Counted from the first letter of the stretch, positions 9,995 through 33,618 are shown. The stretch is DNA of 64,000 bases from Deltaproteobacteria bacterium (GCA_021802645.1 JAJZRO010000007.1:51073-115072); one strand, 5' to 3'. Notes: generated by a model not told the origin, from the letters alone. A program made the numbers and translations.

Positions 9995-10270
9995 ATGAAT
10001 ATCACAAACGACATCAAGCCCGTTACCTACCTCAAGTCCCGTGCGGCTGATCTGCTTGAGCAGATTAACGAGACGCATCGCCCGGTCATCATCACGCAGA
10101 ATGGGGAACCGCGAGCCGTGCTCCAAGACCCGCAGAGCTACGAGGCCATGCGCAACGCCATCGGCATCCTGAAGCTCGTTTCTCAAGGGGAGGCGGACAT
10201 CCGCTCTGGCAAAACGCTGGACCAGGATGTAGTGTTCGGTAAACTCGAAGAGATGCTGGCGAAGAAATGA
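9995..10270 (+). CDS. Phd/YefM-family antitoxin
   Basis: 91 aa reading KPVTYLKSRAADLLEQINETHRPVIITQNGEPRAVLQDPQSYE, the canonical Phd/YefM N-terminal domain. GGAGG RBS. Confidence 0.9.
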   Translation: MNITNDIKPVTYLKSRAADLLEQINETHRPVIITQNGEPRAVLQDPQSYEAMRNAIGILKLVSQGEADIRSGKTLDQDVVFGKLEEMLAKK

Positions 10271-10596
10271 AGCGGACCTACCGGGTGGTCTGGGCTGCGA
10301 TTGCCTACGACGATCTGCATGGAATTATCGAATACATTGCCCAGGACAGCCCGGCGAACGCCAGAAAAGTTCTGAAAACCATCAAGAGCAAGGCCGCGAC
10401 CCTGCACCTCTCGCCGCAGCGGGGGCGGGTGGTGCCGGAGTTGCAGGAACAGGGCATTGCCCACTACCGCGAACTCATTGTCACCCCGTGGCGTCTGATC
10501 TACCGGATTGCCGACGAGACGGTCTTGGTGCTCTCCGTCCTCGACAGCCGGCGGAACATCGAAGACCTCTTACTGGCGAGGCTGACAGGAGTATGA
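10267..10596 (+). CDS. ParE/RelE-family toxin
   Basis: 109 aa with ATGA overlap with the antitoxin stop. AYDDLHGIIEYIAQDSPANARKV...YRELIVTPWRLIYRIADETVLVLSVLDSRRN is ParE-like. Confidence 0.9.
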   Translation: MKRTYRVVWAAIAYDDLHGIIEYIAQDSPANARKVLKTIKSKAATLHLSPQRGRVVPELQEQGIAHYRELIVTPWRLIYRIADETVLVLSVLDSRRNIEDLLLARLTGV

Positions 10597-10862
10597 AAAA
10601 CAAAGGAATGAAGAGAGTTGGATTGCTGGTTGGTGGGGTTCTCTTGATCTGTGCCGGTTCCCCGCTGGCTGCCGTAGCGGCGGATAGCATTGTAGCCAAG
10701 GGCAGCCCGGCGCAGGCGGACATCTGCAACAAGGAATTGAAGTGGGGTGTTGTGAACTGCGACCGGGAATTCCGGCAGCATCAGGATACGCGGAAGCATG
10801 CCGACTGCCTGGCTGCGGTCCGCGCCAAATACGACACCTGCATGGACCCTGGCGCGAAGTAG
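10593..10862 (+). CDS. small secreted 4-cysteine protein (paralog A), unknown function
   Basis: 89 aa with a signal peptide (MKNKGMKRVGLLVGGVLLICAGSPLAAVAA). Mature part is KGSPAQADICNKELKWGVVNCDREFRQHQDTRKHADCLAAVRAKYDTCMDPGAK. The ATG overlaps the parE TGA (ATGA). Confidence 0.7.
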   Translation: MKNKGMKRVGLLVGGVLLICAGSPLAAVAADSIVAKGSPAQADICNKELKWGVVNCDREFRQHQDTRKHADCLAAVRAKYDTCMDPGAK

Positions 10863-10915
10863 CCGTTATCCTAGCTCCACCTATTGTCCTCCCTACAACA
10901 CCCAGGAGAAATCTC

Positions 10916-11476
10916 ATGCGTCAGACATACTGCGTGGTTGTGTTGCTTGCTTTCGCTTTGTCTTTTTTTTTGGTGAACCTTGCCCGTGCTGAAGAAAAGG
11001 GGCGAGGCTGCGATTGCGGTACAGTGGACTTTCACACTGGGATTGATCTGAACGCGCCTGCGGGTACGCCGATTCAGGCCGAAGATGATGGGGTCGTTGT
11101 GAAGGTCGAGGGAAACGAGCAGGCTGCAGTGTATTCGTCTACAGGAGGCTTCTGTGGGCGTTACATCGTGTTGCGGCACGATTATAAGAACGGCCGCTCG
11201 GTCTTTACTCGATACGCGCAACTCGGTGCAATAGCCGACAAACAGGGACGCGGCATCAAGGAAGGGCAAAAGATCAAGGCAGGTGAGCGGATTGGTACCA
11301 TTGGCAAGGCGGGACTGCTGCATTTCGAGGTCCGGCCCGTGGCGTCCAAGCCCAACGCCGAAACCAGTCTCTTCCATAAGGATGATCCCACCATGGCATG
11401 GACCAAGTATCAGCCGGTCAATCCGAATGATTTTGATTTCGATCGCTATGCTGGCCGTCAGCCTAAGAAGCAGTAA
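10916..11476 (+). CDS. secreted M23 (LytM-domain) peptidase-like protein with a non-canonical active site
   Basis: 186 aa with a signal peptide. The HxxxD motif is present (FHTGIDLNAPAGTPI) and the C-terminal motif reads GLLHFEVRP instead of HLHFE. The start was chosen at ATG 10916, inside the longer ORF. Confidence 0.8.
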   Translation: MRQTYCVVVLLAFALSFFLVNLARAEEKGRGCDCGTVDFHTGIDLNAPAGTPIQAEDDGVVVKVEGNEQAAVYSSTGGFCGRYIVLRHDYKNGRSVFTRYAQLGAIADKQGRGIKEGQKIKAGERIGTIGKAGLLHFEVRPVASKPNAETSLFHKDDPTMAWTKYQPVNPNDFDFDRYAGRQPKKQ

Positions 11477-11550: not shown

Positions 11551-11820
11551 ATGAAAACTACATGCTCGAAAATGGTCGGTGCAATTCTTCTGGGGTATCT
11601 TGTGGGTGGCTTTTTTTCCCCGTTGGCAGCACGCGCCGCGAATGACGCAGTGGCCAAGGGCAGCCCGGCGCAGGCGGACATCTGCAACAAGGAATTAAAG
11701 TGGGGTGTTGTGAACTGCGACCGGGAATTCCGCGAGCATCAGGATACGCGCAAGCATGCCGACTGCCTGGCCGCGGTCCGGGCCAAGTACGACACCTGCA
11801 TGGACCCTGGTTCGAAATAG
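11551..11820 (+). CDS. small secreted 4-cysteine protein (paralog B)
   Basis: 89 aa with a different signal peptide but a near-identical mature region (AKGSPAQADICNKELKWGVVNCDREFREHQDTRKHADCLAAVRAKYDTCMDPGSK). DNA is nearly identical to 10690-10862. Confidence 0.75.
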   Translation: MKTTCSKMVGAILLGYLVGGFFSPLAARAANDAVAKGSPAQADICNKELKWGVVNCDREFREHQDTRKHADCLAAVRAKYDTCMDPGSK

Positions 11821-11887: not shown

Positions 11888-12433
11888 ATGCAAGCACGCG
11901 GTCCACTTATGATCGAACATCGCCTGATTGAACGGATGCTTGTGGTCATCAAGGATGCTGTGGCGCAGATCGAATCGAGTCATGCGGTTGATCCGGTGTT
12001 CGTGGACACCGCGGTTGATTTCATCAAGGTGTATGCCGATCAGACGCATCATGGGAAGGAGGAAAAGATTTTTTTCCGGGAGCTGGGGAAGCGGGCGCTC
12101 TCCGACGCGGACCGGCGACTCATGAACGAATTGATCGACGAGCATGTGCTGGGGCGGCAGACAACAGCCGCACTTATTGCCGCCAATATGCGTTACCGCA
12201 ATGGGGATACGGCTGCCCTGACCGACATCGTCGAGAAACTCAAGACCCTGATCGAGTTCTATCCAAGGCATATCGCCAAGGAAGACAAGGTTTTCTTCCC
12301 GGCGGCGAGGGCCTACTTCACGGAAGAGGAAGACCAGGCCATGCTGGCGGAGTTCTGGGAGTTTGACCGCAAGATGATCCACGCGAAATACACGGCAGTG
12401 GTCGAAGGATTTGCCAAACGCCCTGGCGCATGA
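11888..12433 (+). CDS. hemerythrin-domain (HHE cation-binding) protein
   Basis: 181 aa from ATG 11888 (AGGAGA RBS). PLMIEHRLIERML..., YADQTHHGKEEKIFF and HIAKEDKVFFP are hemerythrin-like His/Glu repeats. Confidence 0.8.
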   Translation: MQARGPLMIEHRLIERMLVVIKDAVAQIESSHAVDPVFVDTAVDFIKVYADQTHHGKEEKIFFRELGKRALSDADRRLMNELIDEHVLGRQTTAALIAANMRYRNGDTAALTDIVEKLKTLIEFYPRHIAKEDKVFFPAARAYFTEEEDQAMLAEFWEFDRKMIHAKYTAVVEGFAKRPGA

Positions 12434-12516
12434 GGCCACAGAATTATCCGGCAATTACGTTTCTTTTCCCACCGGCCAGTCGCGCGGCCGGCACGCCCCG
12501 ATGACCAGCGGACTGC

Positions 12517-12554
12517 CGAAAAGAGGGACGAAGCCCATGCGGCTCCGTCCCTCT
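12517..12554 (-). terminator. hairpin terminator between the convergent hemerythrin and Gly-repeat genes
   Basis: AGAGGGACG (12522-12530) pairs with CGTCCCTCT (12546-12554). On the minus strand the stem is followed by a CTTTTCGG run. The loop is long (15 nt). Confidence 0.5.
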
Positions 12555-12575
12555 GCGGGGCGACAACTCAGCTCG

Positions 12576-13532
12576 TTACTTACTACCACCCCTGCCGTAT
12601 CCTTTCCCCTGGCCACCGCTGCCGCCAGCCGCACCGCCACCGCCGGTGACGATGCCGGCGCCCTGCCCGTGACTCCCCGCGCCAGGGGAAGAAACACCAC
12701 CGGCTGCACCGCCTGCCCCGGTCACGATGCCGCTCTTGCCCCCGGAACCACCGGCGCCGGTCACAATGCCGCTTTTACCCCCGGAGCCTTTTCCACCAAC
12801 GACATTGGCCCCGCCGCCTGCCCCGGTCACGATGCCGCTCTTGCCCCCGGAACCGCCAGCCCCGGTCACAATGCCGCTTTTACCGTGGCCGGTGGTGGTC
12901 GTCGTTGCGCCGGACGTGGTCGTGGTGCCGGTCGTGGTGGTTCCGGTTTTGATGGCGGAGGTGCGGGAGAGCGCGGTATTGGCGGTTTTCATGCTGCTGA
13001 TGACCGGGCCCAGTTTCGTGCCATAGGCTTGGGCGATCTGGCCCCAGCCCATGCCGCTCGCCCGCATTTGCAGCACGCCTTGCGTCTGCTGCCCGTCAGA
13101 GGTGAGGGTGCCACCCATCATCGCCGCCTGGGTCTGCTGGGCGGTGGGGTTGGTGATGCCGGCGGCGGTGAGCTGCTGCTTGGCCAGCGCCATGGAAATG
13201 TAGGCCTCGCCGTTCCCCATTTTGCCGGTGGGTGGCGTGAAGGTCGTGGTGGAGATGGAACCGTCCGTCGCCTGCGAGGTCAGCGTTATTTCCTTGCCGC
13301 TCCGCAGCCCGCTTGCAAGTGCTTGGGAATTCTCCTCACCGTAGAAGCTGCTGAAATCGGCCGCCGTCCTGTTGGTGACCGTCGTCTGGCCCTTGGACGT
13401 CGCGTAGCGGTCCATCCGGGTGGCCTGGGTTGTCAGAGCCTTGTTGCTGTCCGCCGCCCGGGCGGCGCCGGCCGCCACACCACCGAGCAAAAGAGTCCCC
13501 GCCATGAGAATCACAACGACTTTCTTCTTCAT
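12576..13532 (-). CDS. secreted protein with a Thr-rich linker and C-terminal GKSGIVTGAGG repeats (copy 1), unknown function
   Basis: Start at ATG 13532 (GGAGGTC RBS) with signal peptide MKKKVVVILMAGTLLLGGVAAGAARA. A ~180-aa N-terminal region contains GMGWGQIAQAYGTKLGPVISSMK, followed by a poly-Thr tract, 11-aa Gly-rich repeats and the tail GQGKGYGRGGSK. Confidence 0.8.
   Translation of the reverse strand: MKKKVVVILMAGTLLLGGVAAGAARAADSNKALTTQATRMDRYATSKGQTTVTNRTAADFSSFYGEENSQALASGLRSGKEITLTSQATDGSISTTTFTPPTGKMGNGEAYISMALAKQQLTAAGITNPTAQQTQAAMMGGTLTSDGQQTQGVLQMRASGMGWGQIAQAYGTKLGPVISSMKTANTALSRTSAIKTGTTTTGTTTTSGATTTTTGHGKSGIVTGAGGSGGKSGIVTGAGGGANVVGGKGSGGKSGIVTGAGGSGGKSGIVTGAGGAAGGVSSPGAGSHGQGAGIVTGGGGAAGGSGGQGKGYGRGGSK
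12640..12892 (-). repeat. in-frame 33-nt tandem repeats encoding G-K-S-G-I-V-T-G-A-G-G units
   Basis: The plus strand shows reiterated CCGGTCAC(G/A)ATGCCGCT(C/T)TT(G/A)CCCCCGGA units. This gives four full GKSGIVTGAGG units plus a degenerate AGIVTGGGG unit in the protein. Confidence 0.85.
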
Positions 13533-13611
13533 TTTTGACCTCCTGGGTTCCCCCATTGATTGTCCCGGTCCCTAGAATCCCGAACCAACCCGGTACGGTC
13601 GCTATGCCGGA

Positions 13612-14025
13612 TCAACTGGTTACTTGGCCGTTCAATGCCTTTTCAGTCTGCATGATAATCTCGACTGCGGTGGCGGAATCCATCACCACTTTTCTTGCCG
13701 TGACGCGCATGCGTGTCGTATTCGGACTGATGCACTCCAGCTCCACATTGATGTTCCGGTCCGGTGTCTGGGCTGTGATCTCTTCGCCGCCATTCATTTT
13801 TTCGATGCCGTTGACCTTGATGGCCATGCGTTTCAGGGCGGCCAGGGTGGCTTTTTTCACCTTGGGTAGGGGTTCGGTAAAGGTTTTGTAGGCAATGCCG
13901 CTCAAGGTCTGGCCAACCCCCGCGCCAGCCCCGACGCCCAGCAGGGTCAGTGAAATGGGATCGCAGCCGGAAAGCAGGAACAGCCATATTCCAAGAACGG
14001 CGACCCGGATCGTTGTTTGTCGCAT
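13612..14025 (-). CDS. DUF3568-family lipoprotein (copy 1)
   Basis: 137 aa from ATG 14025 with lipobox LLSGC. GVGAGAGVGQTLSGIAYKTFTEPLPKVKKATLAAL...TTRMRVTARK...SATAVEIIMQTEKAL matches my memory of DUF3568. It lies 80 nt upstream of the Gly-repeat gene on the same strand. Confidence 0.75.
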   Translation of the reverse strand: MRQTTIRVAVLGIWLFLLSGCDPISLTLLGVGAGAGVGQTLSGIAYKTFTEPLPKVKKATLAALKRMAIKVNGIEKMNGGEEITAQTPDRNINVELECISPNTTRMRVTARKVVMDSATAVEIIMQTEKALNGQVTS

Positions 14026-14313
14026 TATTATACCATCCAACAAGTGATTCAGGGATCATGACATCGAGACGAGACCAATCTATCAGCAACTCACGCCATG
14101 TTACACCAAAAAAACAGGGGGGACATCTATGGGAACACTCGGAAAGGGTGTCCCTCCTTTTTGTCGGCGGAGGGAAAGGGGTGTGTCGCTGCCCCGGCCC
14201 TTCCATTGACGCCACCGCTGTTTCTGCTTATTGCAAATAGTGTCGGCAGAATTGTCGGGCCGATGCGTCTGCGCCGCAACAATGGGCCAGTTTCCGGAGA
14301 GGGAGAAAAGGCG

Positions 14314-14438
14314 ATGGCGGTTGATGCTGTCAGCAATATCAATTCCGTTCGGACAACGGTTCTGCAGGGCCAAACCCGGACGACCGTTCCCGTGGCCACC
14401 TCCCCTCTGAGTATCGTTTCCGGCCCTGTTGCCGTAGC
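14314..14438 (+). pseudogene. duplicated 5' fragment of the FlaG-like gene (first ~42 codons) at the duplication junction
   Basis: ATGGCGGTTGATGCTGTCAGCAATATCAATTCCGTT...GTTGCCGTAGCG aligns with 16412-16535 (MAVNDIGNINSVLATVLQGQSRSTVPLATSPLNVV...). Similarity stops at about 14438. Confidence 0.65.
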
Positions 14439-14440
14439 GG

Positions 14441-14668
14441 AGATGGTGCGGCCCTGGCCGATATTGTCGAGAAGCTCAAGACCCTGGTCGAGTTCTATTG
14501 CAAACACATTGCCAAGGAAGACAAGGTCTTCTTTCCTGCCTCGCGCGCCTATTTTTCCGAAGAGGAAGACCAGGCCTGCTGGCGGAGTTCTGGGAGTTTG
14601 ACCACAAGATGATCCACGCGCAATACACGGCAGTGGTCGAAGGATTTACCAAACGCCCTGGAGCAGGA
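14441..14668 (+). pseudogene. duplicated 3' fragment of the hemerythrin gene, frameshifted
   Basis: Aligns with ~12205-12433 (DIVEKLKTL.EFY..HIAKEDKVFFP...EEEDQA / LAEFWEFD.KMIHA.YTAVVEGF.KRPGA). A 1-nt deletion (CAGGCCATGCTGG becomes CAGGCCTGCTGG) splits it into two frames, and there is no start codon. Confidence 0.8.
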
Positions 14669-14755
14669 GGCCACAGAATTATTCGGCAATTGCGTTTCTT
14701 TCCCGCACCGGTCAACCGCGCGGCCGGCAATGCCCCGATGAACCAGCGGACTGCC

Positions 14756-14791
14756 GAAAAGAGGGACGAAACCATGCGGCTCCGTCCCTCT
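14756..14791 (-). terminator. duplicated copy of the hairpin terminator downstream of Gly-repeat gene copy 2
   Basis: AGAGGGACG (14760-14768) pairs with CGTCCCTCT (14783-14791), the same structure as at 12517-12554. Confidence 0.45.
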
Positions 14792-14811
14792 TCGGGGCGA
14801 TATTCAGCTCG

Positions 14812-15675
14812 TTACCTGCCACCCCTGCCGGAGCCTTTTCCCTCGCCACCGCCAGCGGCACCAGCCGCACCGCCACCACCGGTGACGATGCCGGCACCCT
14901 GCCCGTGACTCCCCGCGCCAGGGGAAGAAACACCACCGGCTGCACCGCCTGCCCCGGTCACGATGCCGCTCTTGCCGCCAGCGCCTTTTGCGCTGCCCCC
15001 GGCACCGGCGCCGCCAGCGCCGGTCACAATCCCGCTCTTGCCGGCGCCGGTGGTGGTTTTACCTGTCGCTGTCGTCGGTGTGGTCCTGGTTCTGATGGTG
15101 GCGGTCCGGGAGAGCGCGGTGTTGGCGGCCTTCATGCTGCTGATGACCGGGCCCAGCTTGGTGCCATAGGCTTGGGCAATCTGGCCCCAGCCCATGCCGC
15201 TCGCCCGCATTTGCAGCACACCTTGCACCGGCTGTCCGTCAGAGGTGAACGTGCCGCCCATCATCGCCGCCTGGGTCTGCTGGGCAGTGGGGTTGGTGAT
15301 GCCGGCGGCGGTGAGCTGCTGCTGGGCCAGCGCCATGGAAATGTAGACCTCGCCGTTCCCCATTTTGCCGGTGGGTGGGGTGAAGGTTGTGGTGGAGATG
15401 GAGCCGTCCGTCGCCTGCGAGGTCAGCGTGATCGCGCTGCCGCTGCGCAGCCCGGTGGCAAGCGCTTGGGAATTCTCCTGGCCGTAAAAGCTGCTGAAAT
15501 CGGTTGCCGTCCTGTTGGTGACCAAGGTCTGGCCCTTGGACGTCGCGTAGCGGTCCATCCGGACGGCCTGGGTTGTCAGAGTCTTGTCGCTGTCCGCCGC
15601 CCGCACCACGCCAGTCGCCACACCGCCCAGCCAAAGAGTCCCCGCCATGAGAATTACAGCGACTTTCTTCTTCAT
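14812..15675 (-). CDS. secreted Thr/Gly-repeat protein (copy 2)
   Basis: Start at ATG 15675 with the same RBS and signal peptide as copy 1 (MKKKVAVILMAGTLWLGGVATGVVRA) and a collinear N-terminal region. It has a shorter Thr linker and fewer GKSGIVTGAGG units (287 aa versus 318 aa). Confidence 0.8.
   Translation of the reverse strand: MKKKVAVILMAGTLWLGGVATGVVRAADSDKTLTTQAVRMDRYATSKGQTLVTNRTATDFSSFYGQENSQALATGLRSGSAITLTSQATDGSISTTTFTPPTGKMGNGEVYISMALAQQQLTAAGITNPTAQQTQAAMMGGTFTSDGQPVQGVLQMRASGMGWGQIAQAYGTKLGPVISSMKAANTALSRTATIRTRTTPTTATGKTTTGAGKSGIVTGAGGAGAGGSAKGAGGKSGIVTGAGGAAGGVSSPGAGSHGQGAGIVTGGGGAAGAAGGGEGKGSGRGGR
14876..15050 (-). repeat. shorter 33-nt Gly-repeat array in copy 2
   Basis: Same CCGGTCAC(G/A)AT(G/C)CCGCTCTTGCC unit as in copy 1, but only about three units. 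Confidence 0.75.
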
Positions 15676-15762
15676 CTTTGACCTCCTGGGTTCCCCCATT
15701 GATTGTCCCGGTCCCTAGAATCCCGAACCAACGCGGTACGTCGCGATGCCGGATCAATAGCT

Positions 15763-16170
15763 TTATTGGGCGCCCAACGCCTTTTCGGTCTGCATGATGA
15801 TCTCGACCGCCGTGGCGGAATCCAACAGGGCCGTTTTCCTCGCCGTGACGCGCATGCGTGTCGTATTTGGGCTGAGTGACTCCAGCTCGATTTCGATATC
15901 TCGATCCGCTGCCTGAGCCGAGATATTTTCGCCGCTTTCCACTTTTTGGGTGGTGCCGACCTTGATGGCCATGCGGTTGAGCGCGGTGAGCGCCGCTTTT
16001 TTCACCTTGGGGAGGGGTTCGGTAAAGGTCTTGTAGGCAATGCCGCCCAAGGTCTGGTAAACTCCCGCGCCGGCCCCGACGCCGAACAAGGTCAGCGTAA
16101 TAGGATCGCAGCCGGAAAGGAGGAAGAGGCATCCCCCCAGAACAACTATTCGAATCGATGCATAACGCAT
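15763..16170 (-). CDS. DUF3568-family lipoprotein (copy 2)
   Basis: 135 aa with lipobox LLSGC, collinear with copy 1 at roughly three quarters identity by eye. Confidence 0.75.
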   Translation of the reverse strand: MRYASIRIVVLGGCLFLLSGCDPITLTLFGVGAGAGVYQTLGGIAYKTFTEPLPKVKKAALTALNRMAIKVGTTQKVESGENISAQAADRDIEIELESLSPNTTRMRVTARKTALLDSATAVEIIMQTEKALGAQ

Positions 16171-16312
16171 TGCCGTGTCACCTGGCTGGGGATTGAAGGA
16201 TTGCTACAGAATAAATTTATCAAAAACCCAAGCTGTTTTATATCAAAATAAAGAAGTGCTTGATAACCGGCTGATTCCATTCATGGTAATCCGTTTTCTC
16301 ATTCCCCTGCCA

Positions 16313-16341
16313 TTGACGCCACCGCCATTCCTGTTTAATTT
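16313..16341 (+). promoter_or_regulatory. candidate sigma-70 promoter for the FlaG-like gene (TTGACG-N17-TAATTT)
   Basis: TTGACG at 16313-16318 and TAATTT at 16336-16341. The CCATTGACGCCACCGC block is conserved in the duplicated copy at ~14204 (there TTGACG-N17-TATTGC). Confidence 0.35.
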
Positions 16342-16411
16342 AATAAAATAAGAATAAAGATATCAGGCCATGTGTCCGCTCCGCGAAAGGGAAGGGCGGT
16401 GGAGAACAGAA

Positions 16412-17542
16412 ATGGCGGTGAACGATATCGGTAACATCAATTCGGTGTTGGCAACGGTTCTGCAGGGCCAAAGCCGGAGCACCGTTCCCTTGGCCACTTC
16501 TCCGTTGAATGTCGTTACGAATCCCGTTGCCGTCGCGACTGCCGTAACGCAGAATCTAACCCCCGCCCAACAGGCGGCCGTGCTGGGCACCGAAGCGGTG
16601 CAAACCTTGAACCTGCAGCCGTCCGCTCCGACCGACCCCCTGCTGGCCACCGGCACCGCCCCGGATATGACAACCGTTCTGGAATCGCCAGGGCTGAGCC
16701 CGGCTCAGGAGGCGGCTCTGGCGGTGAACCAAACGGTGCAGGCCGCCATCCAGCCCCAAAACTTGACCCCTGCCCAACAGGCGGCTTTGACCGTCAATCA
16801 GGCGACGCAAGCCCTGGCCACCCAACAGACGCCGGCCGAAACTGCGGCGGCCACCGCGATTACCACGCCAACGCCGGCCCCGGCCCCAGTGGAGACGACG
16901 CTGGCTGCCGCCGGAATCGCAGGCGGAGGGGGGGCGACCGCCACCACACCGGCCGGATCGACGGCAGTTTCAGCCGTCACCACAGCGGCTCCCACCGTGG
17001 TGCCCGCCACGCCCACTACCGCGGCAACGACGGTGGCGGCTCCCGCAGAAGCAATGCCTGCCCAGCCCACCGTCGCCCAACCGATTCCGTATGCCAATGC
17101 CTTTGCGGTCTATGAGGTCAGGAATCCCACCCCACCCCCGCGGGAGCCGGCAGCGATCCGGAAAGAAGTGCATCCAGCCGTGCCGGTCGGTCGGGTGCGG
17201 CCGGTTGATCCGCTGGTTTTGCGGCAGGAATGGGAGAAAAGGAAAAGAGAGAAACGCCAGGGGAGCGGCCAGGCCGTGGCCGCCGCGCCTCGTCCGCCGT
17301 TGGCGGAAAAGGCCATCCGGGATTTGGTCCGCCAGGCCAATGAAACGCTGGCCGCCAGCGGCGTGCCCCTACACCTGGTTCTCTCTCAGAGTGCCGAAGG
17401 GTTCGCCCTGGACGTCTATGAATGTCTGAATGATGCGATGTGCGAGATGACACAGGAGGTGCCGCTTGATCTCAACAACCTCATGACCATTCTGGATAAT
17501 CTGGAGCACGAAAGCGGCATCATCATCAACATCAACACCTAG
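16412..17542 (+). CDS. FlaG-family protein with a long Ala/Thr/Pro-rich low-complexity insertion
   Basis: 376 aa from ATG 16412. The C-terminal ~70 aa (GVPLHLVLSQSAEGFALDVYECLNDAMCEMTQEVPLDLNNLMTILDNLEHESGIIININT) fit the FlaG pattern (xFxvdee.g..vvkv.d..tgevirqiP.e.ll.l...l....Gl.vd). The middle contains NLTPAQQAA-type repeats and poly-A/T/P. Confidence 0.6.
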   Translation: MAVNDIGNINSVLATVLQGQSRSTVPLATSPLNVVTNPVAVATAVTQNLTPAQQAAVLGTEAVQTLNLQPSAPTDPLLATGTAPDMTTVLESPGLSPAQEAALAVNQTVQAAIQPQNLTPAQQAALTVNQATQALATQQTPAETAAATAITTPTPAPAPVETTLAAAGIAGGGGATATTPAGSTAVSAVTTAAPTVVPATPTTAATTVAAPAEAMPAQPTVAQPIPYANAFAVYEVRNPTPPPREPAAIRKEVHPAVPVGRVRPVDPLVLRQEWEKRKREKRQGSGQAVAAAPRPPLAEKAIRDLVRQANETLAASGVPLHLVLSQSAEGFALDVYECLNDAMCEMTQEVPLDLNNLMTILDNLEHESGIIININT

Positions 17543-17860: not shown

Positions 17861-18127
17861 GCTAGTAAGGGGCGGATACGGCACCAGGCCTTGAACAGTA
17901 AATTCCCTCATGTCAGGTTGCGGGCGCGCTTTCGCGGGAAGAAGTGATTTTTCAAGACCTGACTTCACCGGGCGCGGGTAGGCCTGCGTGTTGCCTGTCA
18001 AGATCGGCGACCCTGCCGCAAGAAAATCACCAGCGCAGTCCACATTTATGTGCGACGGTCGTAGCGGAATGTGCTAAAACCTTTCGAAGTAATGCATGTT
18101 CTTTCACCTTCATGCTCAAGTTTCGCC

Positions 18128-20650
18128 ATGGCCGATCAGTTATCATACCGCGTGACCGCCGACGAGGCGAACCTTCTCAACCTGATGCAGGAAGCGGTTT
18201 ACCTCATCGATTCGGAGCAGAATCTCCTTTTCCTTAACCGGCAAGTGGAACAGCGGCTGGGATTTTCAAACAGCGACGTGGCGGGGCGCAAATGCTTCGA
18301 ACTCTTCGGCCGCGGCGGATGTTGCCGCGATCGTTGCCCTGTTGCCAGGATCATCCATTCCCCCCACCGCAACGTCAAACACCAGGTCACTCTCCAGCCC
18401 AAGGAAGGACCACCGCAGACCTTCCTCTTTGATGCCCAGCCCTTTGTCAAGGAAGGGGTGATCCTCGGCACCCTCATTTTTTTGCACAACAGCTCGCCGG
18501 ACCGTCATAGCAACCCCCTCGCCTCCCAGGATGGAGGCCCCGATCAAGAACGTATCAGGGAAACCATTCACGGCGCCGGTTTACGGGATATTTTCAACCT
18601 TGCCGACCTGGAACGGATGGTCTCCGTCTTTGCCGAAATCCACGGCATCACCTCCGCCATCTTCGACGATCGGATGGAGATGGTGACCGACGTCTATAAT
18701 TTCTCCGACTCCTGCCTCATGGTCAGGAGCAGAAAGGAAGGACTGGCCAGATGCCTTCAGTCGGACGAACGGCTGCTGCACTCCGCCCTGGAGAACAGAC
18801 CCTCCACCCTCCGCTGTATGAGCGCCGGCCTGATGGATGCCGTGGCCCCGATTGTTATCGAAGGCAAACGTCTTGGTACCTGGGCTCTGGGCCAGGTCAT
18901 GGTAGACGGCGAGTTCGACGAGAAACGCTTCCGTGCCTTTGCCGAAGAGATCGGTCTAGTGCCGGATGCCTACCTTGCCGCCCTTGAAAAACAAACACGC
19001 ATGCCCATGGCCAAGATGGAAAAACTGGCCGAATTCCTGGTGCTGCTTACCAAGATGCTGGGCCAGGTGGGGCTCAACCACCTCGTCCTCAATCGCCTCC
19101 ACGAACAACTCCAAAGGGAAAAAGAGCTGCTTGCCGTGACCCTGCGCAGCATCGGCGACGGCATTGTCACCTTGGATGCCCAAGGCAAGGTCCTGCTCCT
19201 GAACAGCATTGCCGAAAAAATGACGGGCTGGCCAAGCGAAGAGGCCATCGGCCGCGGCGTGGAGGAGGTGGTGCATCTTGTCCATCCCCACGACAAGGGC
19301 CAACGGATCATGCCGCAAAATATTGCCGAACTCTTTTACGACCAGGCGCAACTGAATTCCCTGTGTCCCCTTCTCATTGCCAGGTCTGGGCGGGAATATT
19401 CCGTCGTCCCTTCTCTTTCCGAGATATCGCACCTCAACGGGGAGAAGGGTGGCCAGGTCCTCGTGCTGCACGACATAACCGAACTGAAGCAGCTGCAGGA
19501 AAACCTGCTCCAGTCCCAGAAGATGGAGGCCATCGGCACGCTGGCGGGCGGCATTGCCCACGACTTCAACAACATGCTCAACGCCATTCTGGGTTACGCC
19601 CAGCTCTCCCTGCGGGCGCATGATCTCCCGAACGCACTGCGGGAAAACCTCCAACAGATCGTCAAGGCAGGGACGCGGGCGGCCAATCTGGTGCAGCAGA
19701 TTCTCACCTTCAGTCGGAAAAACGAGCAGCAGCGCAAGGTGCTCTTCCTGCAACCCCTGATCAAGGAATCCCTCGCCTTTTTGCGCAGCACCCTCCCGGC
19801 CAACATCGTGGTGCGGCAGAACGTCGACGGCCAATGCGGTGCCGTTCTGGCCAATCCGACGCAGATCCATCAGGTGATCATGAATCTTTGCGCCAATGCC
19901 AGGTATGCCATGCTCGACAACGGCGGCATCCTCGGGATCGAGCTGGAGGAGGCAACCCTCGACGGGGCATCGGCCAACGCCGTTGCCGGACTCCAGGCAG
20001 GGCGCTATGCGCGGCTCACCGTCCGGGATAACGGACAGGGGATGGACAGCCTTACGCAGGCCCGAATCTTCGAGCCCTATTTCACCACCAAACCCATCGG
20101 GCAGGGCACCGGTCTCGGTCTTTCGACGGTGCATGGCATTGTCAAGGCCAACCTCGGGGCCATCACCGTTCAGAGCTCTCCTGGCCAGGGCACGGAATTC
20201 ACCATCTACTTTCCCATTGCCCAGGGGACGGAGCGGGCAGAGCTCACCGAAAAAACTGCCGATGCCTTCCACAAGGTCGGCGGCAAGGTGCTCCTTGTTG
20301 ATGACGAGGAAATGCTGGTCCAGCTCGCCATCAGCGAACTCACGGCCCTCGGCTGCGAGGTCTCGGCCTTTACCGATAGCGAGATGGCCCTTGCCGCTTT
20401 CGTCGCCGCCCCGGGAAAGTTCGACGCACTGATAACCGATCAGACCATGCCAAAACTCTCCGGCACCCAGCTTGCCGCCAAGGTCCTGGCCATGAGCCCC
20501 GATCTGCCGGTCATCCTCACTACCGGCTTCAGCGAGACCGTAGACGCGGAAAAAGCCAAGGCCATGGGGATTCGTGAATTCCTGGAGAAACCGGTTTCCC
20601 TTGCGGACTTTTGCCAGGCGCTCTCCAGGGTGTTACCGCCCCGCTGTTGA
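18128..20650 (+). CDS. hybrid sensor histidine kinase/response regulator (Cys-containing PAS, PocR, PAS, HisKA, HATPase_c, REC)
   Basis: PocR-like block (...SCLMVRSRKEGLARCLQSDERLL...LRCMSAGLMDAVAPIVIEGKRLGTWALGQV), then PAS (LRSIGDGIVTLDAQGKVLLLN), the H-box GGIAHDFNNML, N/G boxes (MNLCANARYAM, DNGQGM, GTGLGLS) and REC (VLLVDDE...ITDQTMPKLSG). The start is uncertain, with GTG 18071, ATG 18092 or ATG 18128 all possible. Confidence 0.88.
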   Translation: MADQLSYRVTADEANLLNLMQEAVYLIDSEQNLLFLNRQVEQRLGFSNSDVAGRKCFELFGRGGCCRDRCPVARIIHSPHRNVKHQVTLQPKEGPPQTFLFDAQPFVKEGVILGTLIFLHNSSPDRHSNPLASQDGGPDQERIRETIHGAGLRDIFNLADLERMVSVFAEIHGITSAIFDDRMEMVTDVYNFSDSCLMVRSRKEGLARCLQSDERLLHSALENRPSTLRCMSAGLMDAVAPIVIEGKRLGTWALGQVMVDGEFDEKRFRAFAEEIGLVPDAYLAALEKQTRMPMAKMEKLAEFLVLLTKMLGQVGLNHLVLNRLHEQLQREKELLAVTLRSIGDGIVTLDAQGKVLLLNSIAEKMTGWPSEEAIGRGVEEVVHLVHPHDKGQRIMPQNIAELFYDQAQLNSLCPLLIARSGREYSVVPSLSEISHLNGEKGGQVLVLHDITELKQLQENLLQSQKMEAIGTLAGGIAHDFNNMLNAILGYAQLSLRAHDLPNALRENLQQIVKAGTRAANLVQQILTFSRKNEQQRKVLFLQPLIKESLAFLRSTLPANIVVRQNVDGQCGAVLANPTQIHQVIMNLCANARYAMLDNGGILGIELEEATLDGASANAVAGLQAGRYARLTVRDNGQGMDSLTQARIFEPYFTTKPIGQGTGLGLSTVHGIVKANLGAITVQSSPGQGTEFTIYFPIAQGTERAELTEKTADAFHKVGGKVLLVDDEEMLVQLAISELTALGCEVSAFTDSEMALAAFVAAPGKFDALITDQTMPKLSGTQLAAKVLAMSPDLPVILTTGFSETVDAEKAKAMGIREFLEKPVSLADFCQALSRVLPPRC

Positions 20651-30686: not shown

Positions 30687-31472
30687 CTAGGCGTCGAGGA
30701 CCTTCCGGAGTTTGGTGCGCAGGCGCAGCATGGCTTTGCTGTGCATCTGGGAAATGCGTGATTCGGTATAGCCCATCACCTCCCCGATCTCTTTCATGGT
30801 GAGGTCTTCCTGGTAGTAGAGGGCGACGGTGAGCTTTTCCTTTTCCGGGAGGTCTTCAATGGCCTTGGTCAGAATCTCCCGGACCTGGGCAAGGTTGAGG
30901 GCAGTGAAGGGGTCACGGTCATCCTGGGTGAAGATGTCGATGAGGTTCGTCTCTGCCTCGTCGGTGGTTTTCTGGCGCACATACTCGATGTCGAGAAAGG
31001 TGACCGATTTGGTTTCGTCGAGGAGTTTGTAGAAGTGGTCCAGTTCGAGGCCCAGTTCCTCGGCCACTTCTTCGTCGGTGGCGGGGCGGCCGAGCCGTTT
31101 TTCGACGTCCGCGTAGGTTTTTTCCAGATCGGTGATCTTGCGGCGCACCGAGCGGGGGACCCAGTCCAGGGCCCGCAGTTCGTCGAGCATCGCGCCTTTG
31201 ATGCGGAATTCGGCATAGGTCTTGAACTGGACGTTCTTGGTGACATCGAACTTGTTGATCGCGTCGATGAGGCCGATGATGCCGCAACTGATCAGGTCGT
31301 CCACCGAGACCTGGGGGGGGAGGCGGGCGACCAGCCTCGTGGCGATGTACTTGATCAGCGGCGTATAGGTCATGATCAACTCGTCCCGTTTGGCGGGGTC
31401 GAGCTGTTCATTGGGCGTGAAATAGGCGCTGGTGTAGTCCCGGAACTTGGGGGACTGCGGTTTGGTCGTCAT
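30687..31472 (-). CDS. fliA: flagellar RNA polymerase sigma factor FliA (sigma-28)
   Basis: Start at ATG 31472. Region 2 is (DDLISCGIIGLIDAINKFD...FKTYAEFRIKGAMLDELR), and region 4 is (LTVALYYQEDLTMKEIGEVMGYTESRISQMHSKA). It follows flhF-flhG. Confidence 0.9.
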   Translation of the reverse strand: MTTKPQSPKFRDYTSAYFTPNEQLDPAKRDELIMTYTPLIKYIATRLVARLPPQVSVDDLISCGIIGLIDAINKFDVTKNVQFKTYAEFRIKGAMLDELRALDWVPRSVRRKITDLEKTYADVEKRLGRPATDEEVAEELGLELDHFYKLLDETKSVTFLDIEYVRQKTTDEAETNLIDIFTQDDRDPFTALNLAQVREILTKAIEDLPEKEKLTVALYYQEDLTMKEIGEVMGYTESRISQMHSKAMLRLRTKLRKVLDA

Positions 31473-31527
31473 GGTGGTGTGACACGCCCTGGGTGGCAAC
31501 GGTTGTTTCCCTTCCAATGAAATTATA

Positions 31528-32403
31528 TTACAGCGCAAAAAGTCCCTGCCAGAAAAATTTGATATTGCCATCGTTTTGCAACGTTGGCCGTTCCGCGGCC
31601 AGTTGTCGCGAGACTTTGGCGAGCATCCTGCTTGCCGCGGCATCAGGATAGAGTTCGCTGACCAGCTTTTGCGCCCGCACCGCCTGCGGCAGTTTGGCGT
31701 CATAGGGGATGTGGCCCATGAAATCGAGCGACAGGGTGTCGAGGAAGCGGTCGGCCACCACGCTCAGTTTGCGGAAGACCGCCATGGCCTCCTTTTCCGA
31801 GCGGGCCTGATTGACCAGGATGCGGAATTTTTTGACGTCGTGCTTGCTCGACAGCACCTTGATCAGCGCGTAGGCGTCGGTGAGCGAGGTCGGTTCCGGA
31901 GTGAGGATGATGATGCGCTCCTGGGCGGCCAGGTTGAAGTAGACCACATTGTTGTTGATGCCGGCGGCGGTATCGACCAGCAGGATATCGATTTCACCGG
32001 CCAGGGTCTCCATTTCGGCGAGGAAGTAGAGGCGCTGGTTTTCGGTCAGATCGGCCAGTTCGAGGATACCGGAGCTGGCGGGCAGGATCTTGAGGCCGCC
32101 GGGGCCCTCCACCAGGATTTCGGCCAGGGTCTTTTCGCCGGTAAAGACGTGGTGGAGATTGAACTTGGGGGTGAGCCCCAGCAGGATGTCGACATTGGCG
32201 AGGTTGAGGTCGGCGTCGAGCACCAGGGTCCGCTTGCCTTCCTTGGCCAAGGCGTAGGCCAGGTTGGTGACGATGTTGGTCTTGCCGACCCCGCCCTTGC
32301 CGCTGGTGACGGCAATGACGCGCGGGGGGGCGGTCTTGGCGCCGACGCCGCCTCGCTTGGGGGTGCGGTGCATGATTTTTTCCAGGGTTGCCGCTTGGCT
32401 CAT
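31528..32403 (-). CDS. flhG: MinD/ParA-family ATPase FlhG (flagellar number regulator)
   Basis: 291 aa with the deviant Walker A VTSGKGGVGKTN. Position between flhF and fliA. Confidence 0.85.
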   Translation of the reverse strand: MSQAATLEKIMHRTPKRGGVGAKTAPPRVIAVTSGKGGVGKTNIVTNLAYALAKEGKRTLVLDADLNLANVDILLGLTPKFNLHHVFTGEKTLAEILVEGPGGLKILPASSGILELADLTENQRLYFLAEMETLAGEIDILLVDTAAGINNNVVYFNLAAQERIIILTPEPTSLTDAYALIKVLSSKHDVKKFRILVNQARSEKEAMAVFRKLSVVADRFLDTLSLDFMGHIPYDAKLPQAVRAQKLVSELYPDAAASRMLAKVSRQLAAERPTLQNDGNIKFFWQGLFAL

Positions 32404-32418
32404 GGCCTCTCCTTTCGC

Positions 32419-33600
32419 TTATTGCAGCCAGGCCTGGCGGCCGGCAACGGTGTCGGTATGCTGCATCGCCGCCTGCCATCCCTTGCCGAACAAGGTGCCG
32501 AGGAACTCCTTGCTCGCCGGCAGGAAATCCTCCGGCACCCGTTGGCCGGTGCAGAGGCAGCTGACCGGCAGGGCCGAGGCGGCGATCTGCTGGCAGAGGA
32601 CGGCGTAGGCCCTGGTCTCGTCGAGCTTGGTCACGATGAGCCCGTGTACCTTGAGGGGTTGGTAGGTGTCGAGGATCTGCTGGAGGTCTTCCTTTTTGGC
32701 GGTGGCGCTTACCACCAGATACGTGTCAATGGTTTGACCGGCAGCGAACCAGGTGGCGAGTTCGCGGACATGGCCGGGGTCAAACGGACTGCGGCCGGCG
32801 GTGTCGATGATGATGAGATCCTTGTCCTGATGCTTTTTGAGGGCGCTGGCCAGATCCTGAGGGCGCAGGGTGACTTCGCAGGGCAGCCGCATGATCCGGG
32901 CGTAGGTGCGGAGCTGTTCGGTGGCGCCGATGCGGTAGCAGTCCATGGAAAGGAGTGCTACCCGGCACTGCTGATGGATGCTGAACCAGGCCGCGATCTT
33001 GGCGGCGGTGGTAGTCTTGCCGACCCCGGTGGGGCCGACCAGGGCGATGACGGTCGGGCCATTCCGGCGCTTGAGCGCCAATGGTTTGGCCTGCAGGCGT
33101 TCGATGAGCTGGTCGCGCCACTGGGCCACGTCTTCGGGGCGTGGTTTGGCGCGGTGCTGGTCAGAGACCGCCCGTGGCGGCGCTTTGACGGTCGTCCTTG
33201 CCGGCGGCAGATCGTTGTGGCGCAACCGTAGCAGGTCGGCAAAGCGGCGGTGCAGATCCTGGGCCTCCTGGCTGGAGGGGAGATCGTCGCTTGCGGTCAT
33301 GGCTGCGGCGCCAAGGCGTCCGTGGGCCGGGGCGGCGGGCGGCGGTTCATCGGCCGGCAGATAGGCGGGGTAACCGTAGCGACGACCTCCCTCGCGAGGG
33401 GGAGGCGGTTCGACCCGCACGCAGGGCTCGGTGTCAAAATCCACCGCAGCCACCACCTCGACCAGGGGGGTGTCGCGGTGTCCGGCCTTGGCGCTGCGCA
33501 GGGTGCGGGTGGAGAGAATCACCGCCTCCGTGCCCAGCTCCTCCTTGACGAGGGCAAGGGCTGCCTTGGTGTCGCGAGCTTCGAAGCGTTTGACCTTCAT
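32419..33600 (-). CDS. flhF: flagellar biosynthesis GTPase FlhF
   Basis: 393 aa with SRP-type GTPase motifs (LVGPTGVGKTTTAAKIA, DTAGRS, TKLDET). Position after flhA. Confidence 0.9.
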   Translation of the reverse strand: MKVKRFEARDTKAALALVKEELGTEAVILSTRTLRSAKAGHRDTPLVEVVAAVDFDTEPCVRVEPPPPREGGRRYGYPAYLPADEPPPAAPAHGRLGAAAMTASDDLPSSQEAQDLHRRFADLLRLRHNDLPPARTTVKAPPRAVSDQHRAKPRPEDVAQWRDQLIERLQAKPLALKRRNGPTVIALVGPTGVGKTTTAAKIAAWFSIHQQCRVALLSMDCYRIGATEQLRTYARIMRLPCEVTLRPQDLASALKKHQDKDLIIIDTAGRSPFDPGHVRELATWFAAGQTIDTYLVVSATAKKEDLQQILDTYQPLKVHGLIVTKLDETRAYAVLCQQIAASALPVSCLCTGQRVPEDFLPASKEFLGTLFGKGWQAAMQHTDTVAGRQAWLQ

Positions 33601-33618
33601 GGCGTTTTCCTGTCATCC

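Follow-up and report, generated by a model that had tools for sequence, protein, structure and literature searches.

A conserved gene pair for a DUF3568/Flpp3-like lipoprotein and an exported protein of an unannotated domain family, tandemly duplicated in a Deltaproteobacteria bacterium

Do two neighbouring pairs of genes on the minus strand of a Deltaproteobacteria bacterium contig encode a single kind of envelope system, and what would such a system consist of? The question is raised by a stretch of 64,000 nucleotides (GCA_021802645.1 JAJZRO010000007.1:51073-115072), hereafter the window, in which four minus-strand open reading frames (ORFs) at 12576-13556, 13612-14043, 14812-15699 and 15763-16170 follow each other in the order small-large, small-large. 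The small genes encode DUF3568 lipoproteins and the large ones exported proteins matching no known family. Our analysis points to the pair being a conserved envelope module in many soil and groundwater bacteria. The initial annotation, made from the sequence alone, had proposed a two-gene organisation; the four genes and the motifs it quoted are real, whereas its gene starts and intergenic gaps are amended here. The large genes most likely start at MKKK, at 15675 and 13532, and not at the longest-ORF start, since an AGGAGG ribosome-binding site lies just upstream and the public gene calls agree. For the small gene of copy A, 14025 is the most likely start, the longest ORF reaching 14043. With the large genes beginning at MKKK, the gaps between small and large genes are 87 and 79 nucleotides. 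The genes and their parts are the following.

15763..16170, minus strand: lipoprotein gene copy B, 135 residues, DUF3568/Flpp3 family (ORF, Pfam PF12092)
13612..14025, minus strand: lipoprotein gene copy A, 137 residues (ORF, Pfam PF12092; the public gene call is also 137 residues)
14812..15675, minus strand: exported partner gene copy B, 287 residues, MKKK start (ORF; the same as public gene call P0001)
12576..13532, minus strand: exported partner gene copy A, 318 residues, MKKK start (ORF; comparison with copy B)
15103..15612, minus strand: helical domain of copy B, residues 22-191, with the FTPPTGKMGxGN and GMGWGQIA blocks (AlphaFold2)
14815..15102, minus strand: disordered basic tail of copy B, residues 192-287 (predicted local distance difference test score, pLDDT; composition; motif statistics)
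12960-13469, minus strand: helical domain of copy A, residues 22-191, the same domain as in copy B
12579-12959, minus strand: tail of copy A, longer, with five IVTG motifs and the end GQGKGYGRGGSK

Both small proteins carry a signal peptide that ends in the lipobox FLLSG/C, followed by a Gly-rich hydrophobic segment, DPI(T/S)LTL(F/L)GVGAGAGV. They match Pfam PF12092 (DUF3568) at 30.2 bits in copy A and 35.7 bits in copy B, above the gathering score of 23.2, so that the lipobox and the DUF3568-like character first ascribed to them both stand. The large proteins share a plan of signal peptide (cleaved at the AXA site VRA/AD in both copies), N-terminal region of 190 residues, Thr-rich linker, GKSGIVTGAGG repeats and Gly-rich basic tail. 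The block GMGWGQIAQAYGTKLGPVISSMK is identical in both, and the linkers, repeats and basic Gly-rich C-termini that had been described are present in each.

The coupling of the two genes is not restricted to the window. In all seven metagenomic contexts, a gene for a DUF3568-like protein of ~135 residues lies upstream of the large gene on the same strand, at a gap of 13-153 nucleotides, and the flanks of these loci are unrelated (AsmA/BrkB, GT2/GtrA/YfhO, RecA/RecX and TctC among them). A scan of GTDB, with one genome per species, recovered 208 genomes with a relative of the large protein. Most are Betaproteobacteria (Sulfuricella, Usitatibacter, Rhodocyclaceae, Methylotenera and unclassified Burkholderiales); the remaining carriers are a few Binatia, Tectomicrobia and 'Deltaproteobacteria' metagenome-assembled genomes (MAGs). 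Pairing was counted in the best 80 loci, four of which are cut by a contig end, and two loci (L033 and L053) were scored as paired by eye. The initial annotation had named conserved co-occurrence beforehand among the points on which its proposal would turn. Of the 76 testable species genomes, 63 have the lipoprotein gene immediately upstream in the same orientation, and the reverse look-up from three lipoprotein homologues found a member of the large family downstream in each case (3/3; E 1e-41 to 5e-49). The remaining 13 of the 76 loci hold a large-family member without an upstream lipoprotein. The notion of an uncharacterised two-gene envelope module is thus sustained, the pair being conserved despite unrelated flanks. 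No third gene recurs in about 80 loci apart from clade-specific synteny, with the dcw cluster in Usitatibacter-like and a GT2/GtrA/YfhO cluster in Sulfuricella-like genomes. Because the pair is co-encoded despite this turnover of flanks and has no third conserved partner, its two products are best read as acting together at the membrane.

Presence of the lipoprotein also goes with the type of tail that the large protein carries. Tails with at least two IVTG motifs are found in 49 paired loci and one unpaired locus, whereas (ERPEKP)n tails occur in no paired and six unpaired loci (Fisher p = 2e-7). This covariation suggests that the IVTG tail is the element that needs the lipoprotein.

A search for relatives of the lipoprotein found 475 homologues, most of them with a precomputed PF12092 assignment. 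Copy B consists of the lipobox LLSG/C21, a Gly-rich tether (residues 22-38) and an alpha/beta domain (residues 40-135). Across 112 homologues the lipobox Cys is invariant, as are the tether glycines G32, G36 and G43, and the tether is conserved as strongly as the globular domain. From an alignment of these 112 sequences, AlphaFold2 predicts a beta-alpha-beta4-alpha domain at residues 40-135 (pLDDT > 90). When this model was compared with the PDB using Foldseek, the top three matches were all structures of Flpp3 (6pny, 9nlt_B and 2mu4; E 2.9e-6 to 1.3e-4, template modelling (TM) score 0.57-0.71), the best being 6pny (E 2.9e-6, TM 0.60/0.69). Weaker matches, at E ~1e-3 or beyond, include Bet v1/START helix-grip proteins, the C-terminal domain of BamC, and KA1. 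A sequence search of the PDB with the lipoprotein returned no match, and Flpp3 was found by the fold search only. As modelled, the lipoprotein is predicted to be a structural relative of Francisella Flpp3 with a helix-grip (Bet v1-like) fold. Asp at position +2, considered as a family-wide inner-membrane retention signal, was dropped, the position being variable.

This predicted fold leads to an alternative explanation, in which the two proteins are co-transcribed and functionally separate. The lipoprotein would bind a hydrophobic small molecule or lipid, the partner would be an independent periplasmic spacer or a polyanion- or metal-binding protein, and the operon would reflect shared regulation. 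Foldseek indeed places the lipoprotein among ligand-binding Bet v1/START/SRPBCC folds and the lipid-binding KA1 and PRELID folds. An internal cavity was reported in the nuclear magnetic resonance (NMR) structure of Flpp3 (PMC4688374), but it is not seen in the structure obtained with an X-ray free-electron laser (XFEL) (bioRxiv 10.1101/2025.07.02.662053). The 13 loci without the lipoprotein, the multi-domain forms of the large family and the His/Gly-rich runs that end several tails would also suit separate functions. Separate functions are harder to reconcile with the tight same-strand adjacency, which is seen whichever of the two genes is taken as the start although the flanks have turned over completely, and with the covariation of tail type with lipoprotein presence. 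On balance, we consider functional separation unlikely.

What, then, is the partner? Pfam and NCBIfam, searched with single sequences and with 108 members at E ≤ 1, gave no match above threshold, in agreement with the initial view that the large protein belongs to no characterised family. AlphaFold2, run on a 108-sequence alignment, models residues 22-191 with pLDDT > 90 as a mostly helical domain of ~165 residues, composed of three N-terminal helices, a beta-hairpin and five more helices bearing the invariant FTPPTGKMGxGN and GMGWGQIA blocks. Foldseek found no match to this domain, the best hits having E = 2 in the PDB and E = 0.04 with TM ≤ 0.21 in BFVD. A profile search of the PDB with the large protein gave only non-significant matches to alpha-synuclein and formate dehydrogenase. 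Neither Cys nor His is among the residues invariant in the 108 homologues, these residues form no evident catalytic constellation, and the domain has the look of a module for binding or of a structural one. When a profile of the domain alone was searched against 1.84 billion representatives, it recovered 1,469 clusters at 50% identity (E ≤ 1e-3), 403 of them at E ≤ 1e-30. The domain thus defines a large unannotated family without a relative in Pfam or NCBIfam or, by sequence or by fold, in the PDB. Two Pfam families, HTH_68 (PF22943) and DUF433 (PF04255), were considered for the GMGWGQIA block (residues ~137-181) and rejected as sub-threshold: HTH_68 matches 14 of the 108 members with at best 13.2 bits against a cutoff of 27, and DUF433 matches six of the 108 with at best 21.1 bits against 23.6.

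Members of the family are built alike: a signal peptide is followed by the domain in one to three copies, then by a tail that is repetitive and non-globular, and the C-terminus is short and either basic or His-rich. The tails themselves vary, being Gly-rich with IVTG motifs, (ERPEKP)n, or built of other Pro-rich repeats, and the helical domain behaves as an independent, repeatable module. In P0247-P0252 and P0360, two or three tandem domains precede Pro-rich (RPEVP/VRPNLP) tails ending in GHH or GRH. TonB-like (ERPEKP)n tails, with no lipoprotein within the 12-kb locus, were seen in L060, L068, L080, L088, L090, L054 and L070; the hosts of such loci are Aromatoleum diolicum 22Lin, Azospira, and Rhodocyclaceae and Methyloversatilis MAGs.

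The tails of the two window copies contain three to five G(K/R)(S/G)GIVTGAG motifs. GKSGIVTGAGG repeats number four plus a terminal GAGIVTGGGG in copy A and two plus one in copy B; the net charge of the tail is +9 and +8, respectively, and copy B ends in GRGGR. Across the 108 homologues the motif reads (Q)G(N)A(Y)G(R/S)GIVTGAG and is present in two to five copies (mode three) spaced by 18-28 residues; the last IVTG motif is nearly invariant, and the C-terminus is GKG(N/G/K/H). Such conservation, in the last IVTG motif as in the tether glycines of the lipoprotein, reflects constraint on the sequence and not mere low complexity. The sole DNA tandem repeat reported by Tandem Repeats Finder is a short 18-nucleotide array in the Thr-rich linker of copy A, the IVTG repeats having diverged too far in their DNA, or lying too far apart in it, to be reported by this program. 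Beyond about residue 195 the AlphaFold2 model is disordered (pLDDT < 50, no secondary structure), in a single-chain prediction that leaves room for folding of the tail upon polymerisation.

The nature of the tail bears on a second alternative, an anchor-and-fibre pair or functional amyloid. Here, the partner would be released to the surface, its repeats would polymerise into a cross-beta or other fibre, and the Gly-rich segment of the lipoprotein would nucleate or anchor the polymer, like CsgB with CsgA. Both proteins do have conserved segments of small and beta-branched residues (GIVTGAG repeats in the partner, the GVGAGAGV tether in the lipoprotein), the lipoprotein and the repeat tail covary, and the only sequence similarity of the tail in the PDB, non-significant at E = 0.8, is to the repeat and non-amyloid-beta component (NAC) region of alpha-synuclein. 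In these alignments (E ~0.8-6), the profile of residues 208-285 is set against the KTKEGV-repeat/NAC segment, with GIVTGAG facing GAVVTGV; the similarity is one of composition and matters for the amyloid alternative alone. On the other side, the tail is predicted to be disordered, without a solenoid, its motifs are irregularly spaced and only two to five in number, and no CsgG/FapF-like channel or component of a type I (T1SS), type II or type V secretion system is linked to the pair in about 80 loci. The globular domain of the lipoprotein (about 95 residues) is far too small for a secretion channel. Moreover, relatives have, in place of this tail, repeats that do not resemble amyloid, either (ERPEKP)n or Pro-rich. 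The anchor-and-fibre or surface-layer idea of the initial annotation is weakened accordingly, the irregular motifs being unlike a solenoid or collagen-like rod, and we regard a fibre as quite improbable. Sorting signals were also sought: PEP-CTERM, LPXTG, autotransporter and T1SS RTX families gave no Pfam or NCBIfam match, and the C-terminus has no hydrophobic helix. Given the irregular spacing and the predicted disorder, multivalent docking sites fit the motifs better than a structural repeat does.

We therefore return to a joint function of the two proteins. The reading that we tentatively put forward, and would rate a little short of even, is that the two genes of each module form an operon and encode a membrane-tethered envelope complex of lipoprotein and partner; the detail of the docking motifs is held less firmly still. 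The product of the first gene would be lipid-anchored at Cys21 and would present a Gly-rich tether, LTxFGVGAGAGV, and a helix-grip domain. The product of the second gene would be exported by Sec, and in it the ~165-residue helical domain would be followed by a tail that is disordered and strongly basic. The lipoprotein could then serve as membrane anchor or receptor of the partner, with the IVTG motifs as its docking sites, so that one partner could engage several lipoproteins. Alternatively, the anchored partner might extend a cationic flexible arm to anionic polymers of the envelope, for example peptidoglycan, phospholipid or lipopolysaccharide. The cationic tail and the helical domain would operate in the periplasm near the membrane. 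The analysis itself establishes how the genes are built, their export signals, the family to which the lipoprotein belongs, that the domain is new, the conserved linkage, the covariation between tail type and lipoprotein, the purifying selection and the origin of the two copies by tandem duplication. The physical interaction, the docking role of the motifs, the periplasmic location and any physiological role are what we infer. A bolder version is doubtful: the partner would be the first dedicated Flpp3/DUF3568 partner to be identified, each IVTG motif would capture one lipoprotein to build a multivalent, membrane-tethered periplasmic scaffold, and the domain would represent a new, widespread fold with interchangeable Gly-rich, (ERPEKP)n and Pro-rich tails.

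Several observations weigh against a membrane-tethered complex of this kind. In 13 of 62 paired loci the tail falls under the IVTG threshold of two or more copies, and one IVTG-tailed protein has no adjacent lipoprotein. Helix-grip domains often bind small hydrophobic ligands, not peptides. The residue after the lipidated Cys varies among homologues (D, E, A, V or S), so that placement in the inner or outer membrane is not to be read from it. Finally, sigma-54, sigma-28 and sigma-E patterns and k-mers in 68 upstream regions gave nothing beyond shuffled controls, and no conserved promoter or regulatory motif emerged by which the pair could be assigned to a stress or envelope regulon.

A third alternative, that the module is associated with the flagellum and the pair acts on the filament or sheath, came from the gene that diverges from the module.

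16370-17542, plus strand: 390-residue neighbour gene, divergent from the module; orphan with a Pro/Ala/Thr-rich middle

This gene had been taken for FlaG-like, and its C-terminus does loosely resemble the FlaG pattern by eye. However, the protein has no Pfam match even at E ≤ 10, no NCBIfam match and no PDB relative, and among 5.8 billion proteins only two, both without a Pfam domain, are homologous to its last 130 residues. Its identity as FlaG (PF03646) was rejected on these grounds, and the gene is better described as an orphan. Flagellar genes are present in the window at 30.7-35.7 kb (flhA, flhF, flhG and a fliA-type sigma factor), but this cluster lies at least 14 kb off, behind a PocR/PAS hybrid histidine kinase, BrkB, type III glutamine synthetase (GSIII), GlnD and AmtB. 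Neither the neighbour nor any flagellar gene is found next to the pair in any of the other loci examined, and no sigma-28 pattern lies upstream of any of the 68 lipoprotein genes. The flagellar reading is thus largely refuted, and we consider it extremely unlikely. The cluster itself (30687-35739, minus strand) encodes an FHIPEP protein (FlhA), an SRP54-type GTPase (FlhF), a MinD/ParA-type ATPase (FlhG) and a sigma-70-family factor in the FliA position, and lies downstream of the genes for AmtB, GlnD and type III glutamine synthetase. The 390-residue gene and the histidine kinase gene (18071-20650) lie between the module and BrkB in the window; in the closest relatives (L002 and L003), BrkB directly flanks the module.

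Why does the window hold two modules? Local alignment of 12212-14439 with 14448-16537 (repeat families D1-D12) gives 2,071 aligned nucleotides at 84% identity, and from this the two modules are the two units of one 2.2-kb head-to-tail tandem duplication. The ends of the duplication fall inside a hemerythrin gene and the 390-residue gene.

12212..14439, unstranded: tandem duplication unit A (local alignment to unit B, repeat families D1-D12)
14448..16537, unstranded: tandem duplication unit B, directly abutting unit A (alignment, repeat families)
14311..14439, plus strand: relic of the 5' end of the 390-residue gene, parent 16409-16537 (75% nucleotide identity)
14448..14704, plus strand: relic of the 3' end of the hemerythrin gene, parent 12212-12469 (81-94% nucleotide identity)

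Since the unit boundaries cut into both flanking genes, a chimeric relic is left at the junction. The ORF at 14098-14601 starts with MAVDAVSNINSV..., which resembles MAVNDIGNINSV... of the 390-residue parent, and the frame of the hemerythrin relic encodes LAEFWEFDHKMIHAQYTAVVEGFTKRPGA; the parent gene of the latter is a Pfam Hemerythrin (E 7e-14). This ORF is a chimera of the two relics, which lie at about 14311-14704. Over 14098-14908, the ~43 first codons of the 390-residue gene run into the ~85 last hemerythrin codons out of frame. The chimeric relic marks the breakpoints and is listed as a 167-residue protein in the public gene call.

Comparison of the copies yields 87% amino acid identity for the large proteins (dN/dS, the ratio of nonsynonymous to synonymous substitution rates, 0.25; dS 0.30) and 74% for the lipoproteins (dN/dS 0.31; dS 0.53). 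By these values both copies diverged under purifying selection, and both are probably functional. The duplication is lineage-specific, because the closest relatives with long contigs (72% amino acid identity) hold a single module in the same cobS-cobT-...-dUTPase neighbourhood. What had been presented as a module kept in two copies is, by this comparison, a local event in one lineage.

Other expansions and arrangements of the module were seen among the scanned loci. In L069 (5513-7110) a lipoprotein gene, a large-family gene and a second lipoprotein gene follow each other, which is another independent expansion of the module. In L033 and L053 a further paralogue, consisting of the domain only, lies upstream of the lipoprotein gene, and L050 has extra copies downstream. 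In the Usitatibacter-like loci L029, L033, L045, L050, L053, L063, L071, L079, L084 and L086, the pair lies directly upstream of the cell-division genes mraZ-rsmH-ftsI-murE, an adjacency that is probably clade-specific synteny. In the Sulfuricella-like loci L004 (9006-16858) and L005/L006 (1649-9633), convergent genes for GT2, GtrA and GT-C-type proteins (YfhO, DUF2079, PMT_2) come after the large gene. With its Thr-rich linker, the partner could conceivably be O-glycosylated in the periplasm, but the window lacks this cluster.

Turning back to the surroundings of the module, no sigma-70-like site was found at the module region of the window, and megablast for plasmid origin gave no match. The Rfam search for RNA elements returned only a sub-threshold match to ar35, an alphaproteobacterial small RNA, at 14753-14889 on the minus strand (E = 0.02), where 28.4 bits compare with a gathering score of 45. 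This match lies partly over the 3' end of large gene B and is in all likelihood due to chance. A second local duplication, at 10488-10862 and 11551-11820 on the plus strand (206 nucleotides at 88% identity, 958 nucleotides apart), has left an M23 peptidase gene, at 10742-11476, between two copies of a small secreted protein that contains Cys (...KGSPAQADICNKELKWGVVNCDREF...). Immediately beside the duplicated region lies a PhdYeFM antitoxin and ParE toxin pair (9995-10596, plus strand). The corresponding position in the relative L002 is taken by a MazE/PIN pair, so that the toxin-antitoxin site, between cobS and the module, appears to be a variable islet.

The pairing bears on two protein families. 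Since the presence of the lipoprotein tracks the repeat motif of one exported protein, a testable hypothesis arises for what DUF3568 proteins bind. Flpp3, for which a part in TLR2 stimulation is also reported, is a virulence determinant of Francisella tularensis with a solved structure, and its environmental relatives are genetically coupled to a specific partner. On the other side of the pair stands a large unannotated family of exported, putatively periplasmic domains that would deserve an entry of its own and a structure. In practice the finding carries moderate weight, as nearly all carriers in the examined set are MAGs of uncultured soil and groundwater bacteria.

How does the module compare with known envelope systems? 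Like the curli (CsgA/CsgB with CsgG) and Fap systems, it places a gene for a Sec-exported protein with imperfect short repeats beside a lipoprotein gene. Unlike them, its partner has no Q/N-rich strand-loop-strand repeats, predicted beta-solenoid or regular spacing, its lipoprotein is a Flpp3-like globular domain and not a channel, and none of the seven annotated neighbourhoods contains the CsgG/E/F or FapF Pfam families. A globular domain joined to a long non-globular region, exported or lipid-anchored, is also known from TonB with its (EP)n(KP)n region, TolA, LpoA/LpoB and RcsF, and sister members of the partner family have TonB-like (ERPEKP)n tails. Nevertheless, no sequence or fold relationship to these proteins was found, there is no TonB C-terminal or LpoB domain, and in the module anchor and spacer reside on separate polypeptides. 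As for the lipoprotein, its model also matches Bet v1/START (SRPBCC) proteins and the C-terminal domain of BamC (E 1e-3 to 2e-2). BamC is an outer-membrane lipoprotein that works via protein-protein contacts. These matches are far weaker than those to Flpp3 and lack sequence similarity, and no components of the beta-barrel assembly machinery are linked to the pair.

The closest comparison is with Flpp3 itself. FTT1416c/Flpp3 is stated to be a DUF3568 protein (PMC7431613), and it is described as a virulence determinant and as a lipoprotein of the outer membrane whose fold is Bet v1-like (PMC4688374). According to recent work it is probably not exposed at the surface, and no binding partner of it is known (bioRxiv 10.1101/2025.07.02.662053). 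The lipoproteins described here are likewise small (about 120-140 residues), with a conserved lipobox Cys, DUF3568 and a predicted fold that superposes on that of Flpp3, and duplicate or triplicate genes occur in Francisella too (PMC7431613). In contrast, sequence identity in the structural alignment is only 14%, and the proteins come from environmental Betaproteobacteria and allies and not from an intracellular pathogen. They also have a conserved Gly-rich tether and a genetically coupled exported partner, a coupling that we found described nowhere in the DUF3568 literature searched. The lipoprotein is a new, distant member of the known and functionally opaque DUF3568/Flpp3 family. The lipoprotein family itself was already known; what is new is the domain family of the partner and its coupling to a Flpp3-type lipoprotein.

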